Source: a virus (Duplodnaviria > Heunggongvirae > Uroviricota > Caudoviricetes). From it: a DNA stretch of 27,998 nt. The notes beneath the pieces are model-generated. The model saw nothing but the letters and a program-made list of their open reading frames with translations. It did not search any database and had not been told where the DNA came from. Each line of letters begins with the position of its first letter. Positions within the stretch are counted from its first letter, which is position 1. Shown here piece by piece: positions 4,752 to 27,998 of this stretch. The DNA is taken from the IMG/VR virus record IMGVR_UViG_640753024_000003, positions 1 to 27,998 of that record. One strand, 5' to 3'. A program made the translations under genes and the position numbers.

Positions 4752-4912
4752 ACAGCTCCCCGTTTATTATTTATCTCCTCAGCCAGCCGCTGTGCTTTCA
4801 GGGGATTTCGGATAACAGAAAGGCCGGGAAATACCCAGCCTCGCTTCGTAACGGAGTAGACGAAAGTGATCGTGCCTACCCGGATATTATCGTGAGGATG
4901 CTTCATCGCCAT
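4724..4912 (-). CDS. Exo-xis region protein (lambda orf60a-like)
   Basis: 62-aa ORF immediately downstream of exo on the minus strand, overlapping exo start by 10 nt. Confidence 0.65.
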
Positions 4913-5583
4913 TGCTCCCCAAATACAAAACCAATTTCAGCCAGTGCCACGTCCATTTTTTCGATGAACTCCGGCACCATCTCGTCAAAATTCGCCATGT
5001 ACTTTTCATTCCGCTCAATCACGACATAATGCAGGCCTTCACGCTTCATACGCGGGTCATAGTTGGCAAAGTACCAGGCATCTTTTCGCGTCACCCACAT
5101 GCTGTACTGCACCTGGGCCATGTAAGCCGATTTTATGGCCTCGAAACCACCGAGCCGGAACTTCATGAAATCCCGGGAGGTAAACGGGCATTTCAGTTCA
5201 AGGCCGTTGCCGTCACTGCATAAACCATCGGGAGAGCAGGCGGTGCGCATACTTTCGTCGCGATAGATGATCGGGGATTCAGTAACATTCACGCCGGAAG
5301 TGAATTCAAACAGGGTTCTGGCGTCGTTCTCGTACTGTTTTCCCCAGGCCAGCGCCTTAGCATTAACTTCCGGAGCCACACCGGTGCAAACCTCAGCCAG
5401 CAGGGTGTGGAAGTAGGACATTTTCATGTCAGGCCACTTCTTTCCTGAGCGGGGCTTTGCTATCACGTTGTGAACTTCTGAAGCGGTGATGACGCCGAGC
5501 CGTAATTTGTGCCATGCATCATCCCCCTGTTCGACAGCTCTCACGTCGATCCCGGTACGCTGCAGGATAATGTCCGGTGTCAT
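4903..5583 (-). CDS. exo: Lambda exonuclease (Red alpha)
   Basis: 226-aa [43 protein letters not shown]..., recognised as lambda Exo; ATGA overlap with bet stop. Confidence 0.95.
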
Positions 5584-6370: not shown

Positions 6371-6667
6371 TTATACCTCTGAATCAATATCAACCTGGTG
6401 GTGAGCAATGGTTTCAACCATGTACTGGATGTGTTCTGCCATGCGCTCCTGAAACTCAACATCGTCATCAAACGCACGGGTAATGGCTTTTTTGCTGGCC
6501 CCGTGGCGTTGCAAATGATCGATGCATAGCGATTCAAACAGGTGCTGGGGCAGGCCTTTTTCCATGTCGTCTGCCAGTTCTGCCTCTTTCTCTTCACGGG
6601 CGATCTGCTGGTAGTGACGCGCCCAACTCTGAGCCTCAAGACGATCCTGAATGTAATAAGCGTTCAT
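6371..6667 (-). CDS. gam: Gam, RecBCD inhibitor (98-aa short form)
   Basis: 98-aa [59 protein letters not shown]..., recognised as lambda GamS; no in-frame extension corresponding to the long isoform. Confidence 0.9.
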
Positions 6668-6742
6668 GGCTGACCTCCTGAAAATGGCTGTGAAAATATC
6701 GCCCGCGAAATGCCAGGCTGATTAGGAAAACAGGAAAGGGGA

Positions 6743-7033
6743 TTAGTGATTCAGGCCGTTACCGCGTCCGTCGAGAAAAACTTCCACGAGCAAATCACGG
6801 GTATAAGTGCGCTCGATGCCGCGATGCAGATAAAGCCGTCCGCGTAAATTAGCTGATGCAGTCCAGGTACCATCTTTGTGTTTGACCAGCATTCCTGGCA
6901 TGACCGCACCTCGATTAACGGTCTGCGTTCCATAATGTTGATGAACCATAAAAACTCCTGCCCGTAAGCTGGGCTGCTGAACATATAGAGACTTCTGCGC
7001 GTATTCAGGCGGTGGATGGCCGCCGGTTGTCAT
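6743..7033 (-). CDS. Hypothetical protein in the kil/cIII position downstream of pL
   Basis: 96-codon ORF; internal Met at 6949 is preceded by GGAG with 6-nt spacing and may be the true start (68 aa); no recognisable motif; not an N-family sequence. Confidence 0.4.
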
Positions 7034-7234
7034 AACTAAGCCGCCTCGTTGAAGCGACTAAGGTATGAAATGTTGAGTTAATTTCAGCTGGTCACACCGA
7101 CGTTCACGCGTCCGTTTCACCCCTCGCACTCCCCGAAGCCTGCTGAAATTCAAACTGCGGATCTAAGCGGTCATCGCAACGGTGAATCAGGTAGTTGCCG
7201 TATCGTTGTGTTGTTGCGATGAACTTATTTAAAA

Positions 7235-7300
7235 CTATAGTTGTTTTATCGTCAACAACAAAAGTTGTTTTATTGGTTGTTTTAGATATAACTGGTTGTA
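7235..7300 (-). promoter_or_regulatory. Putative OL operators and leftward promoter pL
   Basis: Minus-strand TTGACG-17 nt-TTAAAT promoter-like hexamers; 17-bp element aaaactatagttgtttt and palindrome aacaacaaaagttgtt built from the same AACAAC/GTTGTT half-sites found in OR. Confidence 0.5.
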
Positions 7301-7397
7301 TTTAGGATGGATTTATTTTGTGACTTGAATCGCATAGCGATAACTGAAGCGAGGTTATGGTGGTTTTTTTAACGGTGTGTGTGTGATGAGGGGAGGG

Positions 7398-7425
7398 CAA
7401 AAGAAAACCCGGCACGGTGACCGGG
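7398..7425 (-). terminator. Intrinsic terminator downstream of cI (minus strand)
   Basis: Stem cccgg/ccggg with 8-nt loop; on the minus strand followed by a T-rich tract (plus-strand aaagaaaa 7400-7407). Confidence 0.5.
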
Positions 7426-7546
7426 ATTCTTACGCCGTTAGGTAAAGATATTATTGCGGTGGCTTAATATTACTACCTAGAGCAAAGATAGGAATTAGTT
7501 CTTTACTGAATGAGCACAATGCCCAGTTGATAATTTTTAATTGGTA

Positions 7547-8236
7547 CTACCCATGCTTCCTATATGTCTGCGGCATGCTCCCAATAACCTTACCGAAGAT
7601 GAACACCCGGTTCATCTCGTCTTTCTCGATCGGGTCCCACGGTGAGTAGCTTTTGTTATCAGAGATGACCAGCAGCTTATCCTTCATCATTTGCAGGCGC
7701 TTTACATGGGCTGTGTCGTCGTACAGAAACGCATAGATACCATCACCGTCGAAAGATTTAACTGTGATATCAACGAACAGCAGATCACCTGGTTCGATCG
7801 TTCCTGACATGCTGTCACCACGCACGTTAATGATGCGGATATTTTCCGCCTTCCTACCATCGAACATGTGACGAGCATCGTCAAACGAGTACTCAACCGA
7901 GCGTAGAACTTCTACAAACTCACGGTTGATGACTCCCGGCCCAGCACTGACTTCTATATCAAGAACGTCAATCTTGAAGTATTTGGAATGGCTGACAGTT
8001 GATTGTATTGGTTGCACTGTACTGTCTGACATATTTCCAACGCCAGAAGATAACCATTCTGCGCGCACACCCAATGCGTTCGCGATCTCCACGATTTTAG
8101 TTGTTTGATTAGCTTTCCCTGTTTCGATTTTCTGAATAGCAGCCTGGCTAACCCCGACCAAATCCCCAAGCGCCTTTTGTGTAAGGCCTCGCGCTAATCT
8201 GGCTTCTTTAAGTCTTTCTGAGAGTGTTGTTTTCAT
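7547..8236 (-). CDS. cI: CI-type prophage repressor (N-terminal HTH, C-terminal LexA/S24-like autocleavage domain)
   Basis: Start placed at MKTTLSERLKEARLARGLTQKALGDLVGVSQAAIQKIE (HTH); C-terminal RGDSMSGTIEPGDLLFVD is an S24 peptidase-type motif; divergent from cro across an operator region. Confidence 0.85.
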   Translation of the reverse strand: MKTTLSERLKEARLARGLTQKALGDLVGVSQAAIQKIETGKANQTTKIVEIANALGVRAEWLSSGVGNMSDSTVQPIQSTVSHSKYFKIDVLDIEVSAGPGVINREFVEVLRSVEYSFDDARHMFDGRKAENIRIINVRGDSMSGTIEPGDLLFVDITVKSFDGDGIYAFLYDDTAHVKRLQMMKDKLLVISDNKSYSPWDPIEKDEMNRVFIFGKVIGSMPQTYRKHG

Positions 8237-8269
8237 AGTCCAAATGTACAACCAAGGTTTTATCCCATC

Positions 8270-8325
8270 AAACGAAAATGGTTGTTGACTAAAAACAACC
8301 ATAGTTTTAATCTTGATTCAAATTA
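8270..8325. promoter_or_regulatory. Putative OR operators with pR and pRM
   Basis: Plus-strand TTGACT-17 nt-TAATCT upstream of cro; palindrome ggttgtt-N7-aacaacc and 17-bp element aaaacaaccatagtttt, which is the reverse complement of the OL element apart from one base. Confidence 0.55.
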
Positions 8326-8340
8326 ACCACGGAGGTTGTT

Positions 8341-8571
8341 ATGAACCCAGCTATCAAAACAGCGATCAATATCGTTGGTTCACAAAAGAAACTGGGCGCT
8401 GCTTGCGAAGTTTCACAGCAGGCCGTCTATAAGTGGCTTCACAACAAAGCAAAGGTATCCCCTGAACATGTCGGCAGCATTGTTACGGCTACTGGTGGAG
8501 TAGTGAAGGCATACCAGATTCGCCCGGATCTTCCGAAGTTGTTTCCACACACCGAAAAGAACGCAGCTTAA
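8341..8571 (+). CDS. cro: Cro-type HTH repressor
   Basis: 76-aa ORF with HTH (QKKLGAACEVSQQAVYKW), GGAGG ribosome-binding site, divergent from cI. Confidence 0.75.
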   Translation: MNPAIKTAINIVGSQKKLGAACEVSQQAVYKWLHNKAKVSPEHVGSIVTATGGVVKAYQIRPDLPKLFPHTEKNAA

Positions 8572-8583
8572 ATTTCCATTTCA

Positions 8584-8596
8584 CGCTCTTTAACAA
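8584..8596 (+). promoter_or_regulatory. boxA-like element (nutR position) between cro and cII-like gene
   Basis: CGCTCTTTAACAA matches the boxA consensus (GCTCTTTAACAA) known from rrn/lambdoid antitermination sites; no obvious boxB hairpin follows. Confidence 0.45.
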
Positions 8597-8640
8597 TAAG
8601 CAATCAACTTAACAGTCAATTCAAACTAAAGGAGTCAATT

Positions 8641-9180
8641 ATGCAACCACTTACATACCAACAGACTAGCGGATTTAGCCCGACTGCGGTGATAAATCGT
8701 TCTCAAACAAAACAGGTGCCAGGCCACGAAAAAATCCGTGATGCCGTCCGCGCCTGGTCGGCTGTAGATAATCAGGATGTCGTTGCCACACTCATTGTGA
8801 ATGAGTATCGGGAGCAGGGCGGCGGCACCATCGATTTCCCTGATGATGTCAGCCGTGCACGCCAGAAGCTGTTCCGCTTCCTCGATAACAAATTCGATTC
8901 TGAAAAATACCGAAATAACGTGCGTGAACTGACCCCGGTAATTCTGGCGGTACTACCGCTGGAATATCGCGGTTACCTGGTTGAGCAGGATAGCTTCATG
9001 GCTAGGTTGGCTGAAATGGAAAAGGAACTCAGTGAGGCAAAACAGGCTGTCATTCTCAACGCACCACGCCACCAGAAACTGAAGGAAATTAGTGAAGGTA
9101 TTGTGTCGATGTTTCGTGTGGACCCAGATCTGGCTGGTCCATTGATGGCGATGGTTACTACCATGCTGGGGGCGATATGA
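8641..9180 (+). CDS. CII-like regulatory protein (CP76-type), in the cII position
   Basis: 179-aa ORF between cro and O; family assignment from memory of the phage CII (CP76) family, not verified. Confidence 0.45.
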   Translation: MQPLTYQQTSGFSPTAVINRSQTKQVPGHEKIRDAVRAWSAVDNQDVVATLIVNEYREQGGGTIDFPDDVSRARQKLFRFLDNKFDSEKYRNNVRELTPVILAVLPLEYRGYLVEQDSFMARLAEMEKELSEAKQAVILNAPRHQKLKEISEGIVSMFRVDPDLAGPLMAMVTTMLGAI

Positions 9181-9266
9181 CAGGTTCAGAAATGGCGAAA
9201 GCCGGTCTGCTGGAACAGAACCGACTTTCAGGTGCAAATCGTAACACACTCATTGCGGGAGGAATT

Positions 9267-10196
9267 ATGGCAAACACTGCTGAGATATTCAATTTTCCAG
9301 TGCCGGATGCGGCACAAAAGGAGCCGCGCGTGGCAGATCTCGATGATGGTTATACGCGCATTGCAAATGAGTTGCTGGAAGCTGTGATGCTGGCCGGATT
9401 AACACAGCACCAGCTTCTGGTCTTTCTGGCTGTCATGCGCAAAACATATGGCTTTAATAAAAAACTGGATTGGGTTAGCAACGAGCAACTTTCCGAATTA
9501 ACCGGGATATTGCCGCACAAGTGTTCTGCTGCAAAAAGTGTTCTGGTAAAGCGTGGGATTTTTATTCAGAGCGGGCGGAATACCGGCATTAATAATGTGG
9601 TCAGTGAATGGTCAACATTACCCGAATCAGGTAAGAAAAATAAAGTTTACCTGAAAGAGGTAAATTTACCTGAATCAGGTAAAAAAAGTTTACCCAAATC
9701 AGGTAAAGGCGTTTACCCGAATCAGGTAAACACAAAAGACAAACTAACAAAAGACAATATAAAACCTTTTTCGTCCGAGAATTCTGGCGAATCCTCTGAC
9801 CAACCAGAAAACGATCTTCCTGTGGTGAAACCGGATGCTGCAATTCAGAGCGGCAGCAAGTGGGGGACAGCAGAAGACCTGACCGCCGCAGAGTGGATGT
9901 TTGACATGGTGAAGACCATCGCGCCATCAGCCAGAAAACCGAATTTTGCAGGGTGGGCTAACGATATCCGCCTGATGCGTGAACGTGACGGACGTAACCA
10001 CCGCGACATGTGTGTGCTGTTCCGCTGGGCATGCCAGGACAACTTCTGGTCCGGTAACGTGCTAAGTCCGGCCAAACTCCGCGACAAGTGGACCCAGCTC
10101 GAAATCAACCGAAACAAGCAACAGGCTGGCGTGATAGCCGGCAAACCAAAACTCGACCTGACGAACACTGACTGGATTTACGGGGTGGAGCTATGA
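9267..10196 (+). CDS. O: Replication initiator O (non-lambda N-terminal iteron-binding domain, lambda-like C-terminal P-interaction domain)
   Basis: Start placed at MANTAEIFNF (GGAGG ribosome-binding site; in-frame alternative start at 9177); C-terminal region (SKWGTAEDLTAAEWMFDMVKTIAPSARKPNFAGWANDIRLMRERDGRNHRDMCVLFRWACQDNFWSGNVLSPAKLRDKWTQLEINRNKQQAG) recognised as lambda O; iterons inside the gene. Confidence 0.85.
   Translation: MANTAEIFNFPVPDAAQKEPRVADLDDGYTRIANELLEAVMLAGLTQHQLLVFLAVMRKTYGFNKKLDWVSNEQLSELTGILPHKCSAAKSVLVKRGIFIQSGRNTGINNVVSEWSTLPESGKKNKVYLKEVNLPESGKKSLPKSGKGVYPNQVNTKDKLTKDNIKPFSSENSGESSDQPENDLPVVKPDAAIQSGSKWGTAEDLTAAEWMFDMVKTIAPSARKPNFAGWANDIRLMRERDGRNHRDMCVLFRWACQDNFWSGNVLSPAKLRDKWTQLEINRNKQQAGVIAGKPKLDLTNTDWIYGVEL
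9618..9775 (+). repeat. Replication origin: five ~19-bp iterons (TTTACCYGAATCAGGTAAA-like) followed by an A-rich unwinding region
   Basis: Direct repeats at about 9618, 9647, 9665, 9688 and 9711, each internally palindromic, then A-rich tract 9730-9775; embedded in the O coding region as in lambda ori. Confidence 0.8.
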
Positions 10197-11848: not shown

Positions 11849-13375
11849 ATGAAAAAAGCCATAGCATATATGCGATTTTCATCACCAGGTCAGATGTCTG
11901 GCGACTCATTGAACCGACAGAGAAGACTTATTGCTGAATGGTTAAAGGTAAATAGTAATTATTATCTTGATACCATAACATATGAAGATTTAGGATTAAG
12001 TGCATTCAAAGGAAAGCATGCACAATCAGGAGCTTTTTCGGAATTTTTAGATGCTATAGAGCATGGTTATATATTGCCAGGAACTACATTGTTAGTTGAA
12101 AGTTTGGACAGACTTTCAAGAGAAAAAGTCGGTGAAGCGATTGAGCGTCTGAAATTGATTTTGAATCACGGTATTGATGTTATAACTCTTTGCGATAATA
12201 CAGTCTATAACATTGACTCTTTGAATGATCCATATTCATTAATAAAAGCCATACTTATAGCACAAAGGGCAAATGAAGAAAGCGAGATAAAGTCAAGTCG
12301 GGTTAAATTATCATGGAAGAAAAAACGGCAGGATGCACTGGAGTCAGGCACGATTATGACGGCGTCTTGTCCGAGATGGCTCTCATTGGATGACAAAAGA
12401 ACAGCTTTTATTCCAGACCCCGACAGGGTGAAAACGATTGAGCTAATTTTTAAACTCAGGATGGAAAGGCGATCATTGAATGCAATAGCCAAGTATTTAA
12501 ATGATCATGCTGTAAAAAATTTCTCAGGCAAAGAAAGTGCATGAGGGCCTTCTGTAATTGAAAAATTATTAGCGAATAAAGCTCTGATAGGTATATGCGT
12601 ACCTTCATATCGTGCAAGAGGTAAAGGAATAAGTGAAATCGCTGGCTATTATCCCAGAGTCATATCAGATGATTTGTTTTACGCTGTGCAGGAAATTCGG
12701 TTGGCACCTTTTGGTATTAGCAATAGTAGCAAAAATCCTATGTTGATAAATCTACTTCGAACAGTTATGAAGTGCGAGGCTTGTGGTAATACCATGATTG
12801 TTCATGCGGTATCTGGAAGTTTGCATGGCTATTATGTTTGTCCGATGAGAAGACTGCATCGATGTGACAGGCCATCAATAAAGAGAGATTTGGTTGATTA
12901 TAATATCATTAATGAGTTGCTTTTTAATTGTAGTAAAATCCAACCAGTTGAAAACAAGAAAGATGCTAATGAAACTTTAGAGTTGAAAATTATTGAGCTC
13001 CAGATGAAAATTAATAATTTAATTGCTGCATTATCTGTTGCGCCTGAAGTTACCGCTATAGCAGAAAAAATCAGAGTATTAGATAAGGAATTACGAAGGG
13101 CTTCGGTATCATTAAAAACTTTGAAGAGTAAAGCGGTGAGTTCACTTGGTGATTTTCATGCTATTGACTTAACCAGTAAAAATGGGCGAGAGCTATGTCG
13201 TACACTTGCCTATAAAACATTCGAAAAAATCATAATCAATACAGATAATAAAACCTGTGATATCTATTTTATGAATGGCATTGTTTTTAAACACTATCCT
13301 TTAATGAAAACAATATCCGCCCAGCAGGCGATAAGTACTCTCAAATATATGGTTGATGGTGAGGTTTATTTTTGA
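11849..13375 (+). pseudogene. ybcK: Large serine recombinase (YbcK-like) interrupted by a single in-frame TGA at 12542-12544
   Basis: Two same-frame ORFs (231 aa and 233 aa) separated only by one TGA; N-terminal resolvase/invertase catalytic domain (YMRFSSPGQ...SLNRQ); read-through sequence ...GKESA*GPSVIEKLLANKALIG suggests TGG(Trp) to TGA. Confidence 0.8.
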
Positions 13376-13684: not shown

Positions 13685-15223
13685 TTATTCAGTCGGCAGT
13701 GCTACGCGCCAGGGGAGCAGTTCGCCGACCCGGTTTATCGGCCAGTCGGCTATGACGTCAAGGACATAGCGGAGGTAGCTTTCTGGCTCCACTCCGTTCA
13801 GTTTGCACGTCCCGATCAGGCTGTACAGCAGCGCTCCCCGCTCTCCTCCATGATCCGAACCGAAGAACAGGTAGTTTTTGCGGCCCAGACTGACCATCCG
13901 CAACGCATTTTCAGCGATGTTATTGTCCGCCTCAGCCCAGCCATCATCTGCATAGTACGTCAGCGCCGGCCACTGGTTCAGGGCGTATGCGAACGCTTTC
14001 GCCAGTTCTGAGTGTCGCGACAGGGTTTTCATCTTTTCACGCAACCAGCTTTCCAGGGATTTCAACAGCGGTTTCGTTTTTCGCTGACGTTCAGCAAGCC
14101 GCTGCTCTGCCGGCATTCCCCTTATATCCGCCTCTATGGCGTACAACTGACCGATCTGCTCCAGGGCTTCTTCCGTCAGTGCTGACGGGATGCGGACGTG
14201 CACATCGTGGATCTTTCGGCGGGCATGAGCCCAGCAGGCAGCTTCCGTTATCCCACCATTGCGATACAGCTCGTTGAACCCGGCGTACGCATCCGCTTGC
14301 AGCACACCGCTGAAGCAGGCAAGATGAGTCTGCGGATGGATGCCTTTTCTGTCCGGGCTGTAAGCGAACCACACTGCAGGTGCCAACGCTGACCCGGCAT
14401 TGCGGTCATCACGAACATACGCCCACAACCGCCCGGTCTTCGTCTTCTTATTACCCGGCAGCAGTACCTGGACCGGGGTATCATCGGCATGGAGTTTGCC
14501 GTCAGTCATGACATAGCCATGAAGCGCCTCTTCCAGCGGAGACAGCAGCCGGCAGCATGCATCCACCCAGCCCGACAGCAGTGAACGGCTCAGCTCCACA
14601 CCTTGCCGGCCGTATATTTCTGACTGGCGATACAGCGGGGTGTGCTCTGCATACTTCGAGGTCAGCACGCGGGCCAGCAGCCCCGGTCCGGCGATACCCC
14701 GCTCGATGGGCCGCGAAGGTGCAGGTGCCTGCACGATGGCATCGCACTGAGTACAGGCATGTTTTTCCCGTACCGTCCGGATAACCCGGAAGGCACTACG
14801 CATCAACTCCAGCTGTTCGGCGGTATCCTCGCCCAGATAGCTCAGTGAACCGCCGCAGTTCGGGCAGCACGGCGCCGCAGGCAACAGTCGCTTTTCGTCA
14901 CGGGGTAGTGATTCAGGGAACGGCTTACGGGTGCGGGTCTGACGCAACGGACGCTGTACAGCCGGGTCATACACCCTACCAGTCAGCGTATCGCTCTCTT
15001 TCTGAAGCCGGTTCAGATCGGCTTCCATTTGTGCGATACGGCGGGAGACTTTTTCGGAACGACTGCCGAAGTTCATCCGGCGGAGTTTATCCAGCTGCGC
15101 CTGCAGATGGTCTATTTCGCGCTCCCAGTTGCTCAGCTTTTCCTGCAGGGCGTGGATCAGCGCTTCCTGTTCGGCCAGGCGCTGTTTCAGCAGGAAGATG
15201 TCGTCAGAAGAGATGTCGTTCAT
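13685..15223 (-). CDS. tnpC: IS66-family transposase TnpC
   Basis: 512-aa ORF with N-terminal coiled coil/leucine zipper, CxxC...CxxC zinc finger (CCPNCGG...CTQCD) and DDE-type core. Confidence 0.9.
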
Positions 15224-15272
15224 AAGCCCGTATTTTACCGGGCTTATTCTGTGACAACCAGGATAAAGAGAT

Positions 15273-15620
15273 TTACAGCATGGTCAGGGAGGTCAGCAAC
15301 CGCTTGGGCTGTCGCCAGTCGATACCTTCCAGCAGCATCGCCAGCTGCGCCTGCGTAAGGAACACTTTGCCATCACGGGCTGACGGCCAGGCGAAGCGCC
15401 CACGCTCCAGCCGTTTGGTCAGGAGGCACAGTCCGTCACCGGTGGACCACAGCAGTTTAACCTGACTGCCGCTGCGGCCCCGGAAAATGAAAACATGGCC
15501 GGACATGGGATCGTCTTTCAGCGCCGTTTGTACTTTCGCAGCCAGGCCGTTGAAGCCATTTCTCATATCGGTGATACCGGCAACCAGCCAAATTTTGGTC
15601 CCGGAAGGTAACGGGATCAT
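15273..15620 (-). CDS. tnpB: IS66 accessory protein TnpB (Orf2)
   Basis: 115-aa [33 protein letters not shown]... in the middle position of the IS66 operon, overlapping tnpA stop. Confidence 0.85.
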
Positions 15621-16018
15621 CGCTTCAGTTCCTGTATCAGCAGAGTCAGGAGCTTTTCGCTGACATTGCCATTGAAGCGGAGCGTCCCGTGCCGGAACGT
15701 TACCTCACAGCTGATACTGAGGGTTTCCGGGTCCTCTGCGAGCGATTCTGGCTGTTCGGCAGCTGCATCGAGAGTCACAGGAAGTAGCTGGGGGCTCTCT
15801 GAAGAAGGTAATAGCAGCTTTCCCTCGCGCCATTGTTGTCGCCATTTGAACAACAGATTGGCGTTAATGCCATTTTCAAGAGCAAGTTTTGAGATGGATA
15901 TCCCGGGTTCACAGGAGGCAGCAACGAGCTGCTGTTTAAATTCGGGAGGATAATTAGGGCAGCCTTTTCGCCTGCCGGGAGTCACATTTTTCTGCATATC
16001 TGACACTTTGGTTCCCAC
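15617..16018 (-). CDS. tnpA: IS66 accessory protein TnpA (Orf1, HTH)
   Basis: 133-aa ORF in the first position of the IS66 operon; ATGA overlap with tnpB. Confidence 0.8.
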   Translation of the reverse strand: MGTKVSDMQKNVTPGRRKGCPNYPPEFKQQLVAASCEPGISISKLALENGINANLLFKWRQQWREGKLLLPSSESPQLLPVTLDAAAEQPESLAEDPETLSISCEVTFRHGTLRFNGNVSEKLLTLLIQELKR

Positions 16019-17217: not shown

Positions 17218-17257
17218 ATCCACTAAATTGATTTTCAACAATCAACTTGCCATAATT

Positions 17258-18814: not shown

Positions 18815-18899
18815 AGTCAGAGATAACAATCAACTAATACTGTTTTATTGATTTTTGCTTGTAATTGGCGTTCTGGTCTGATTTTTGTGGAGTAAGTTG

Positions 18900-19283
18900 A
18901 TGCGTGATATTCAGATGGTTCTTGAGCGTTGGGGAGCGTGGGCGGCTAATAATCATGAAGATGTGACCTGGTCGTCCATTGCCGCCGGTTTTAAGGGATT
19001 AATTCCTTCAAAAGTAAAATCTCGCCCGCAATGTTGTGACGATGACGCGATGATCATTTGCGGGTGCATGGCCCGTCTGAAAAAGAACAACAGCGATTTG
19101 CACGATTTATTAGTAGATTATTATGTAGTCGGTATGACATTCATGTCACTGGCAGGTAAGCATTGCTGCTCTGATGGTTATATCGGGAAAAGGTTACAGA
19201 AAGCTGAGGGTATAATTGAAGGGATGTTAATGGCATTAGATATCCGGTTAGAGATGGATATCGTTGTTAATAACTCTAATTAA
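18900..19283 (+). CDS. quuD: Q-family late-gene antiterminator (QuuD-like)
   Basis: 127 aa from [22 protein letters not shown]...; Cys-rich zinc-binding region; located between nin genes and the lysis cassette. Confidence 0.85.
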
Positions 19284-27414: not shown

Positions 27415-27998
27415 TGGCATTCAGAATGAGTGAACAACCACGGACCATAAAAATTTATAATCTGCTGGCCGGAACTAATGAATTTATTGGTGAAGGTGAC
27501 GCATATATTCCGCCTCATACAGGTCTGCCAGCAAACAGTACCGATATTGCACCGCCAGATATTCCGGCTGGCTTTGTGGCTGTTTTCAACAGTGATGAGG
27601 CATCGTGGCATCTCGTTGAAGATCATCGGGGAAAAACCGTCTATGACGTGGCTTCCGGCGACGCGTTATTTATTTCTGAACTTGGCTCGTTACCGGAAAA
27701 TGTCACCTGGTTATCGCCGGAAGGGGAATATCAGAAGTGGAACGGCACAGCCTGGGTGAAGGATACGGAAGCAGAAAAACTATTCCGGATCCGGGAGGCG
27801 GAAGAAACAAAAAACAGCCTGATGCAGGTAGCCAGTGAGCATATAGCGCCACTTCAGGATGCTGTAGATCTGGAGATCGCAACGGAGGAAGAAACCTCAT
27901 TGCTGGAAGCCTGGAAAAAATATCGGGTGTTGCTGAACCGTGTTAATACAACAACTGCACCGGATATTGAATGGCCAACAGTACCCATTATCGAATAG
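27414..27998 (+). CDS. tfa: Tail fibre assembly chaperone Tfa
   Basis: 194-aa [94 protein letters not shown]..., recognised as lambda Tfa; ATAATG overlap with stf stop; ends with TAG at 27996-27998. Confidence 0.9.

Follow-up and report, generated by a model that had tools for sequence, protein, structure and literature searches.

The window, by which the whole analysed stretch of 27,998 nt is meant, is a DLP12-type lambdoid prophage. Its genes follow the order int, xis, exo, bet, gam, kil, pL, the cI terminator, cI, oR/pR, cro, a spacer, ydaT and O, after which come P, ren, an SMR transporter gene, an IS-disrupted serine recombinase gene, ninB, rusA, Q, a porin gene and the lysis genes. The pL operon includes exo (4903-5583), gam (6371-6667) and, as its first gene and at the position of lambda's N, kil (6743-6949, minus strand; PHROG 294, 1e-38). 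The start of kil was placed at the ATG of MVHQ..., given the 1-nt deletions present upstream in some copies; phage 4A7 is annotated likewise. Upstream of kil lie the pL leader (7034-7218, minus strand), which is common to phages of the other immunity type, and the putative oL/pL region (7225-7262, minus strand, with a -35 element TTGACG at 7255-7250), which is homologous to pL of Enterobacter (locus L087) and Kosakonia (locus L085). The cI terminator (7425-7408) and the gene of the cI repressor, containing HTH and S24 peptidase domains (7547-8236, minus strand; Pfam PF00717, PF01381), follow. The putative oR/pR region (8278-8320, plus strand) contains an inverted repeat, ATGGTTGTTGAC-TAAAAAC-AACCAT, and a -35 element TTGACT; the motif TTGTTGAC...AACAAC found there recurs at pL. 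The rightward genes begin with cro (8341-8571, plus strand), encoding a 76-aa protein of the YdaS/P22_Cro family (Pfam PF15943, 4e-17; PHROG 35, transcriptional repressor), and a ydaT-family gene (8641-9180, plus strand; Pfam PF06254, 7e-29; PHROG 163, "CII-like transcriptional activator", 2e-66), and continue with O (9177-10196) and, much further, Q (18885-19283). In published work on YdaT, the protein is described as the functional equivalent of CII (PMC9986795). The prophage copy in the window is probably partly defective. An IS element at 13685-16018, with a 512-aa transposase ORF and two small ORFs, breaks the ybcK-like serine recombinase gene (11849-12544 and 12674-13375), and an IS009 RNA is recognized by Rfam at the right end of the window (27757-27955, 223 bits).

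The spacer between cro and ydaT (8572-8640, plus strand) is 69 nt long, A+T-rich and unstructured when folded. Direct reading reveals in it a boxA, CGCTCTTTAACAA, at 8584-8596 on the plus strand, which starts 12 nt past the cro stop codon and ends 45 nt before the ydaT ATG (8641). The Shine-Dalgarno sequence of ydaT, AAGGAG (8629-8634, plus strand, read directly), is located 6 nt 5' of the ATG and 32 nt 3' of boxA. The original prediction described the motif as a near-consensus boxA in the nutR position, between cro and a cII-like gene. The match proved to be even better, since it agrees with the consensus at 13 of 13 positions with no decay visible, and it is the single exact copy in the window when both strands are searched; the position was confirmed by the coordinates and by the Pfam and PHROG assignments. 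When two to three mismatches are allowed, the window holds nine matches against a shuffle mean of 8.4, which is the chance rate, while by our arithmetic the expectation for an exact 13-mer is about 0.001 per 56 kb of two-strand sequence. The core is the rrn-type GCTCTTTA, not the lambda-type GCTCTTA. The 11 nt at 8585-8595, GCTCTTTAACA, fit perfectly the gamma-proteobacterial consensus GYTCTTTAANA (Baniulyte et al., 2017; PMC5725501).

The second claim, that boxB is missing, also holds. The 60 nt beginning at boxA fold to -3.6 kcal/mol (z -0.26) and the region 8560-8660 to -5.0 kcal/mol (z +0.45), so that no hairpin is predicted on either measure. There is also no rrn-style hairpin upstream of boxA, where the cro coding sequence lies, and no boxC in the A+T-rich spacer downstream. 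The boxA core GCUCUUU (8585-8591) is complementary to the Shine-Dalgarno region of ydaT, AAGGAGU (8628-8635), and the two are paired in the minimum free energy fold; the helix is weak (-3.3 kcal/mol, with a 38-nt loop) and not better than in shuffled sequences. The spacer is identical in 75 of the 79 copies in IMG/VR, and in one copy TTTAACAA is changed to TTTGACAA within boxA. The copies in E. coli are mostly at least 99% alike, too similar to separate selection from recent ancestry. A spacer variant, found in E. coli E50 (locus L216, 2833-2913) and in locus L291, contains a 12-nt duplication-like insertion, TTAACAGACTGA, downstream of boxA; its Shine-Dalgarno sequence is weakened (GGAATC) and its boxA unchanged.

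A lambda-type nut system would require, besides boxB, the N protein and a second site downstream of pL. Between pL (~7250) and gam only kil is found, a scan of all ORFs in the window reveals no arginine-rich N-type N-terminus near pL, and profile searches agree, which bears out the absence of N stated in the original prediction. A hidden N was considered in a 31-aa arginine-rich ORF of the leader (7058-7153, minus strand; VKRTRERRCDQ / VKRTRERRCDQLKL), located in frame with kil. It is not an N gene, because its frame is not conserved (the commonest of 33 leader variants has an in-frame TAG, and others have a 5-nt insertion or 1-nt deletions) and it matches neither of the N profiles, Pfam N_peptide (PF25694) and PHROG 271. 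Although the frame runs on into kil in phage 4A7 (locus L002, 3044-3454), the ORF is probably not a gene at all. A second boxA on the minus strand downstream of pL, for which a search had been suggested, did not appear: the interval 6700-7260 contains no boxA-like sequence at up to three mismatches on that strand, and direct reading of the leader gave the same result; therefore, there is no nutL. The leader thus lacks boxA, boxB, an N ORF and, as described below, a put RNA.

Lambdoid phages that lack N can use put RNAs, as HK022 and HK639 do, and in HK639 a ydaT-type gene follows cro, as in the window. A covariance model was built from seven put elements (putL and putR of HK022, and those of HK639, CobraSix, S9-5, phiEt88 and UPF_BP1). 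It scores the known elements at 49-100 bits, whereas the best score in the window is 8.1 bits (E~0.8), within gene O; the window, unlike HK022 and HK639, has no counterpart of the put RNA by this model. The pL leader and the cro-ydaT spacer were likewise rejected as sites of a put-type RNA, as neither aligned with the HK022 or HK639 put elements or matched the model, and Rfam recognizes no family in the immunity region (6600-9300). The unrecognised partner of boxA that the original prediction allowed for thus yielded no candidate, either as an N-family protein or as a put-type RNA.

The origin of the motif becomes clearer when the neighbouring cro gene is compared with its relatives. A scan of one genome per species gave 11 diverged Cro relatives with 63-86% identity, none of them in Escherichia. 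In five of these (Erwinia, Xenorhabdus, Buttiauxella, Photorhabdus and Arsenophonus), boxA is found 7-30 nt past the cro stop codon, and when the window is aligned with them the boxA core, GCTCTTTA.CA, is the sole invariant block. In all five, boxA is followed on its 3' side by a stable hairpin (-9 to -18 kcal/mol). The Arsenophonus nutR reads CGCTCTTTAACAA-cctgg-CCTCCCTGAAATTGGGAG, and its hairpin looks like a classic lambda-type boxB. In Photorhabdus, the hairpin TATGCCGCGAGGTGTA follows boxA at nutL and at nutR alike. Three of the five relatives, those in which these features could be seen, also contain a nutL, consisting of boxA and a hairpin, downstream of pL, followed by an N-like ORF that matches PHROG 271, "anti-termination protein N-like" (E 5e-18 to 8e-6), and Pfam N_peptide (E 1e-10 to 6e-6). 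The presence of boxA with a hairpin after related cro genes argues that the boxA of the window is, as judged from the alignment, the positional homologue of the nutR boxA. No intermediate, in which the window's own cro is followed by boxA and boxB, was found among these sequences. Loss of boxB by a simple internal deletion, which the multiple alignment had hinted at, was not supported by a shuffle test, and the part of the spacer 3' of boxA shows no significant similarity to the cII leaders of the relatives (p 0.2-0.8). The neighbours of Cro-family genes vary widely. In some phages these genes adjoin N and nut, in Salmonella phage UPF_BP1 a cro of the same family adjoins putR, and in Enterobacter L087, Kosakonia L085 and HK639 neither nut nor put stands alongside; this is ordinary lambdoid mosaicism.

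The boundary at which such exchange occurred can be placed precisely. With the interval 8240-8760 as query, E. coli prophages of other immunity match only from query positions 399-401, which correspond to 8638-8640 of the window, directly before the ydaT ATG. Because the similarity to these prophages starts there, the spacer belongs to the cI/cro module, and in the phage collection it was found with the window's immunity only. Phages containing this immunity region are PhiR34_1 (99.8% identical over 6700-9200), PhiR5_1, PhiR47_2, PhiR26_1, IdasGreatGrand and Turner. Phages 4A7 (genus Bievrevirus), 4C10, 1W, 3W, D2 and Perceval have the flanking genes in common with the window but a different cI/cro pair. 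Among 114 IMG/VR loci with an identical 5' end of ydaT, 52 have the window's spacer with boxA, whereas the other 62 have a 4A7-type cro, a 30-nt spacer and no boxA-like sequence within 450 nt; sequenced phages of this boxA-less type are 4A7, 1W, 3W, D2 and Perceval. Conservation of the motif in related immunity regions, on which the original prediction staked its case, is thus only partly seen: boxA is retained after related cro genes, in 5 of 11 and then always with a hairpin, but the other immunity module, joined to an identical ydaT-O-P operon, lacks it. The combination found in the window is common in the host species, since the junction of cro, spacer and ydaT (at least 80% coverage) is present in 1506 of 5426 complete E. 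coli genomes, ~28%.

A wider survey was made from the side of YdaT. As the window's own Cro and YdaT, used as queries against viral contigs, returned mostly near-identical copies, the diversity came from the genome scan described above and from two divergent YdaT proteins used as queries, which gave 210 loci with 52 upstream classes. Among these classes, boxA is present in the window-type module, with its two spacer variants, and in locus L354, and nowhere else; it is found in none of 29 divergent classes and in one of 20 HK639-type classes. That one, L354, is a complete nutR, in which boxA is followed by a GNRA hairpin, GGCTGAgtaaTCAGCC (-10.4 kcal/mol, z -2.8). A boxA without boxB is therefore confined to one cI/cro module among the 52 classes and, as far as these sequences indicate, is not a recurrent design. 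Since neither the sibling phages nor the other surveyed classes have such a boxA, the ydaT-O-P operon does not need it.

Taken together, these observations suggest that the boxA of the window is probably half of a nutR site, orphaned and of no more than accessory effect. The motif is a genuine boxA, an RNA signal for host NusB-NusE, and it is proposed to be what is left of a lambda-type nutR site carried by the cI-cro immunity module. In phages of other Enterobacterales this module is joined to a complete N/nutL/nutR system. In the E. coli lineage (Bievrevirus-like, DLP12-type), its partners are a pL operon without N (pL-leader-kil-gam-bet-exo) and the right operon ydaT-O-P, and this combination would be the reason why the phage has no boxB hairpin, no nutL and no N. 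The site resembles the nutR of lambda, P22 and 21 in its position after cro and before the equivalent of cII, and in the consensus form of its boxA; it differs from them in the lack of boxB, N and nutL, and in that the next gene is ydaT, not a lambda-type cII. The boxA found here has the rrn-type sequence that is optimal for NusB-NusE binding. NusB/E, followed by NusA/G/SuhB, probably still load on RNA polymerase from pR, because this optimal site, 12 nt after the end of cro, is in RNA that is not translated. The loaded factors may then give some resistance to Rho or damp the translation of ydaT, acting as an accessory and not as an essential antitermination device. The pR operon may need little help in any case, since a simple scan reveals no convincing intrinsic terminator on the plus strand between cro and Q.

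Some data speak against a mere remnant. The perfect boxA, undecayed over its 13 positions, is compatible with continued selection, and no intermediate, with the same cro followed by both boxA and boxB, was found. Moreover, a lone consensus boxA is active at suhB and at a parE-like gene of C. koseri, where it recruits SuhB and the Nus factors (PMC5725501). Because lone consensus elements of this kind are known to be active, the site should not be assumed to be vestigial, and even a small effect could still matter, given the share of complete E. coli genomes that contain the module. Although boxA elements, nut sites and the shuffling of modules are familiar, the present instance, a nutR boxA left behind in a phage that lacks N, is new.

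The main alternative is that Nus factors work by themselves on the pR transcript, making the early-right operon resistant to Rho or tuning the translation of YdaT. We regard this as possible but distinctly less probable than an orphaned half-site. Antitermination by Nus factors only, or with an unrecognised partner, was what the original prediction suggested for the locus; its premises (a consensus boxA, with boxB and N absent) stood, but the suggestion found no support in the comparison with other phages. The first form of this alternative follows the rrn operons: boxA would load NusB/E, NusA, NusG and SuhB, and the complex would confer resistance to Rho through ydaT-O-P-nin-Q, replacing N. 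The site has properties that fit such a role, as it is of the rrn-type optimum and not of the weaker lambda type, and it is located in untranslated RNA just 3' of the cro stop codon in a phage without N and without put. The core of the rrn antiterminator (the rrnTAC loading site), GCTCTTTAACAA, is identical to that of the window. In reporter constructs, Nus factors at boxA were shown to block Rho termination (PMC5725501), and rrn antitermination needs no N (PMC3177189, PMC4807359). The lambda boxA9 variant, which is the E. coli rrn BoxA, behaves unlike the weaker wild-type lambda boxA (PMC3177189). However, the rrn antiterminator also includes an upstream boxB-like hairpin and boxC, both absent in the window, whose boxA, unlike that of rrn, lies in mRNA between two translated genes and has a putative function. 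The boxB-like hairpin and boxC of rrn operons are considered less important than boxA. The comparative data also speak against it: sibling phages with an identical operon have no boxA, the arrangement is not repeated among the 52 YdaT upstream classes, and the pL operon has no second boxA despite the terminator-like hairpins found in it after exo. We therefore consider an rrn-like replacement of N unlikely.

The second form is modelled on suhB. At that gene, Nus factors repress translation and in this way promote Rho termination (PMC5725501). In the window, Nus factors at boxA would tether the RNA to polymerase and hinder the ribosome at the ydaT Shine-Dalgarno sequence downstream; the result would be less YdaT, perhaps with Rho termination within ydaT, and a biased lysis-lysogeny decision. 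The perfect GYTCTTTAANA at 45 nt from the start codon agrees with the published criterion of less than 50 nt, the mechanism was demonstrated for suhB and the C. koseri toxin gene, and N with Nus factors at nutL of lambda likewise represses the translation of N (PMC5725501). Like the suhB element, the window's boxA lies less than 50 nt from a start codon and is accompanied by neither boxB nor N (PMC5725501). However, the boxA of suhB is conserved upstream of suhB across genera, whereas that of the window is not conserved upstream of ydaT orthologues, as the 29 divergent and 20 HK639-type classes indicate, and its ancestry, unlike that of the suhB element, would be a phage nut site. In the available part of the published list of boxA elements, the site of the window is not found (PMC5725501). 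Termination within ydaT also seems costly, as O, P and Q would no longer be transcribed, and the pairing between boxA and the Shine-Dalgarno sequence is too weak to be significant. Control of the suhB type is thus less probable still than the rrn-like one.

The choice between these readings is of some consequence. If the boxA is only a remnant, the locus represents a clean case in which lambdoid mosaicism has cut a bipartite RNA signal where two modules meet, and it warns that an antitermination mechanism should not be deduced from boxA alone. An active boxA, on the other hand, would mean that Nus factors naturally control a phage operon that has no N, in a module found in ~28% of complete E. 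coli genomes, and it would offer a simple system for the question, raised by the work on suhB, of what makes a lone boxA block or promote Rho termination (PMC5725501). Control by Nus factors only, if true, would be the first natural phage example of such use of boxA.

It is also conceivable that boxA acts with a phage partner, protein or RNA, other than N and put. Two features of the pL side could be read in this way. The leader contains a G+C-rich core of ~47 nt (7085-7131, minus strand), GAGTGCGAGGGGTGAAACGGACGCGTGAACGTCGGTGTGACCAGCTG, which is nearly invariant across the 33 leader variants and in both immunity types, while its flanks vary. This core is not coding and not put-like, has no match in Rfam, and its fold is not unusually stable. 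As N and put are both absent from these phages, the core is a candidate control element of the pL operon. The leaders of the phi80 type, in turn, contain a boxA-like sequence, TGCTTTTTAACAA, followed by TTAGACCCC.AC.CGTAAA and then by CACCGGG.GCGATCCGG, and no N-family protein accompanies these conserved motifs; because of this, non-canonical partners of boxA may exist in this phage group. For the window, however, this explanation is very improbable: there is no hairpin or conserved element beside its boxA, the arginine-rich leader ORF offers neither a conserved frame nor a match to N profiles, 4A7-type phages, which lack boxA altogether, have the leader core too, and the similarity between the window's leader and those of the phi80 type is not significant. 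As for the 13-mer having arisen by chance in an A+T-rich spacer, nothing specific favours it beyond the chance rate of the matches with two to three mismatches, and it is effectively refuted by the very low expectation, the canonical position and the alignment with the boxA of the five diverged relatives.

The phi80-type leaders deserve a brief description of their own. On the minus strand they are located at ~1075-1030 in locus L096 (phi80, X13065), ~1039 in L085, ~1153 in L087 and ~669 in the Serratia locus L088, where boxA is CGCTCTTTAACAA. The "N" of phi80 was rejected as an N homologue, as it has no arginine-rich motif, belongs to a PHROG of unknown function and does not match N_peptide. 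A reading of the window's leader as a phi80-type leader minus its boxA segment, based on a three-block homology seen by eye, was rejected as well, since a shuffle test gave p~0.8; the sequence common to the two is limited to the initial ~25 nt of the transcript plus the kil leader. The phi80-type leader may be a different, uncharacterised element containing boxA. Loci L085 and L087 have the pL and operators of the window, a boxA-like sequence in the leader and no boxA after cro, which makes them a mirror image of the window.

Two further observations were made. The cro-ydaT spacer contains no YdaT operator. The sole exact match to the published consensus of this operator, TTGATT-N6-AATCAA (TTGATTTTCAACAATCAA), is located at 17228-17245 on the plus strand, in the nin region upstream of ninB and far from cI; a copy with two mismatches lies at 8313-8330, between pR and cro. 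The interval between cI and pL (~7430-7545 in the window, which itself carries no cargo there) varies in relatives, being annotated with GevT/GevA in PhiR47_2, with HipA/HipD in PhiR5_1, and with an ASCH-domain protein and a hypothetical protein in 4A7 (records PV340567, PV340545 and NC_049946). This interval is a rexAB-like position and a hotspot for accessory or defence genes.
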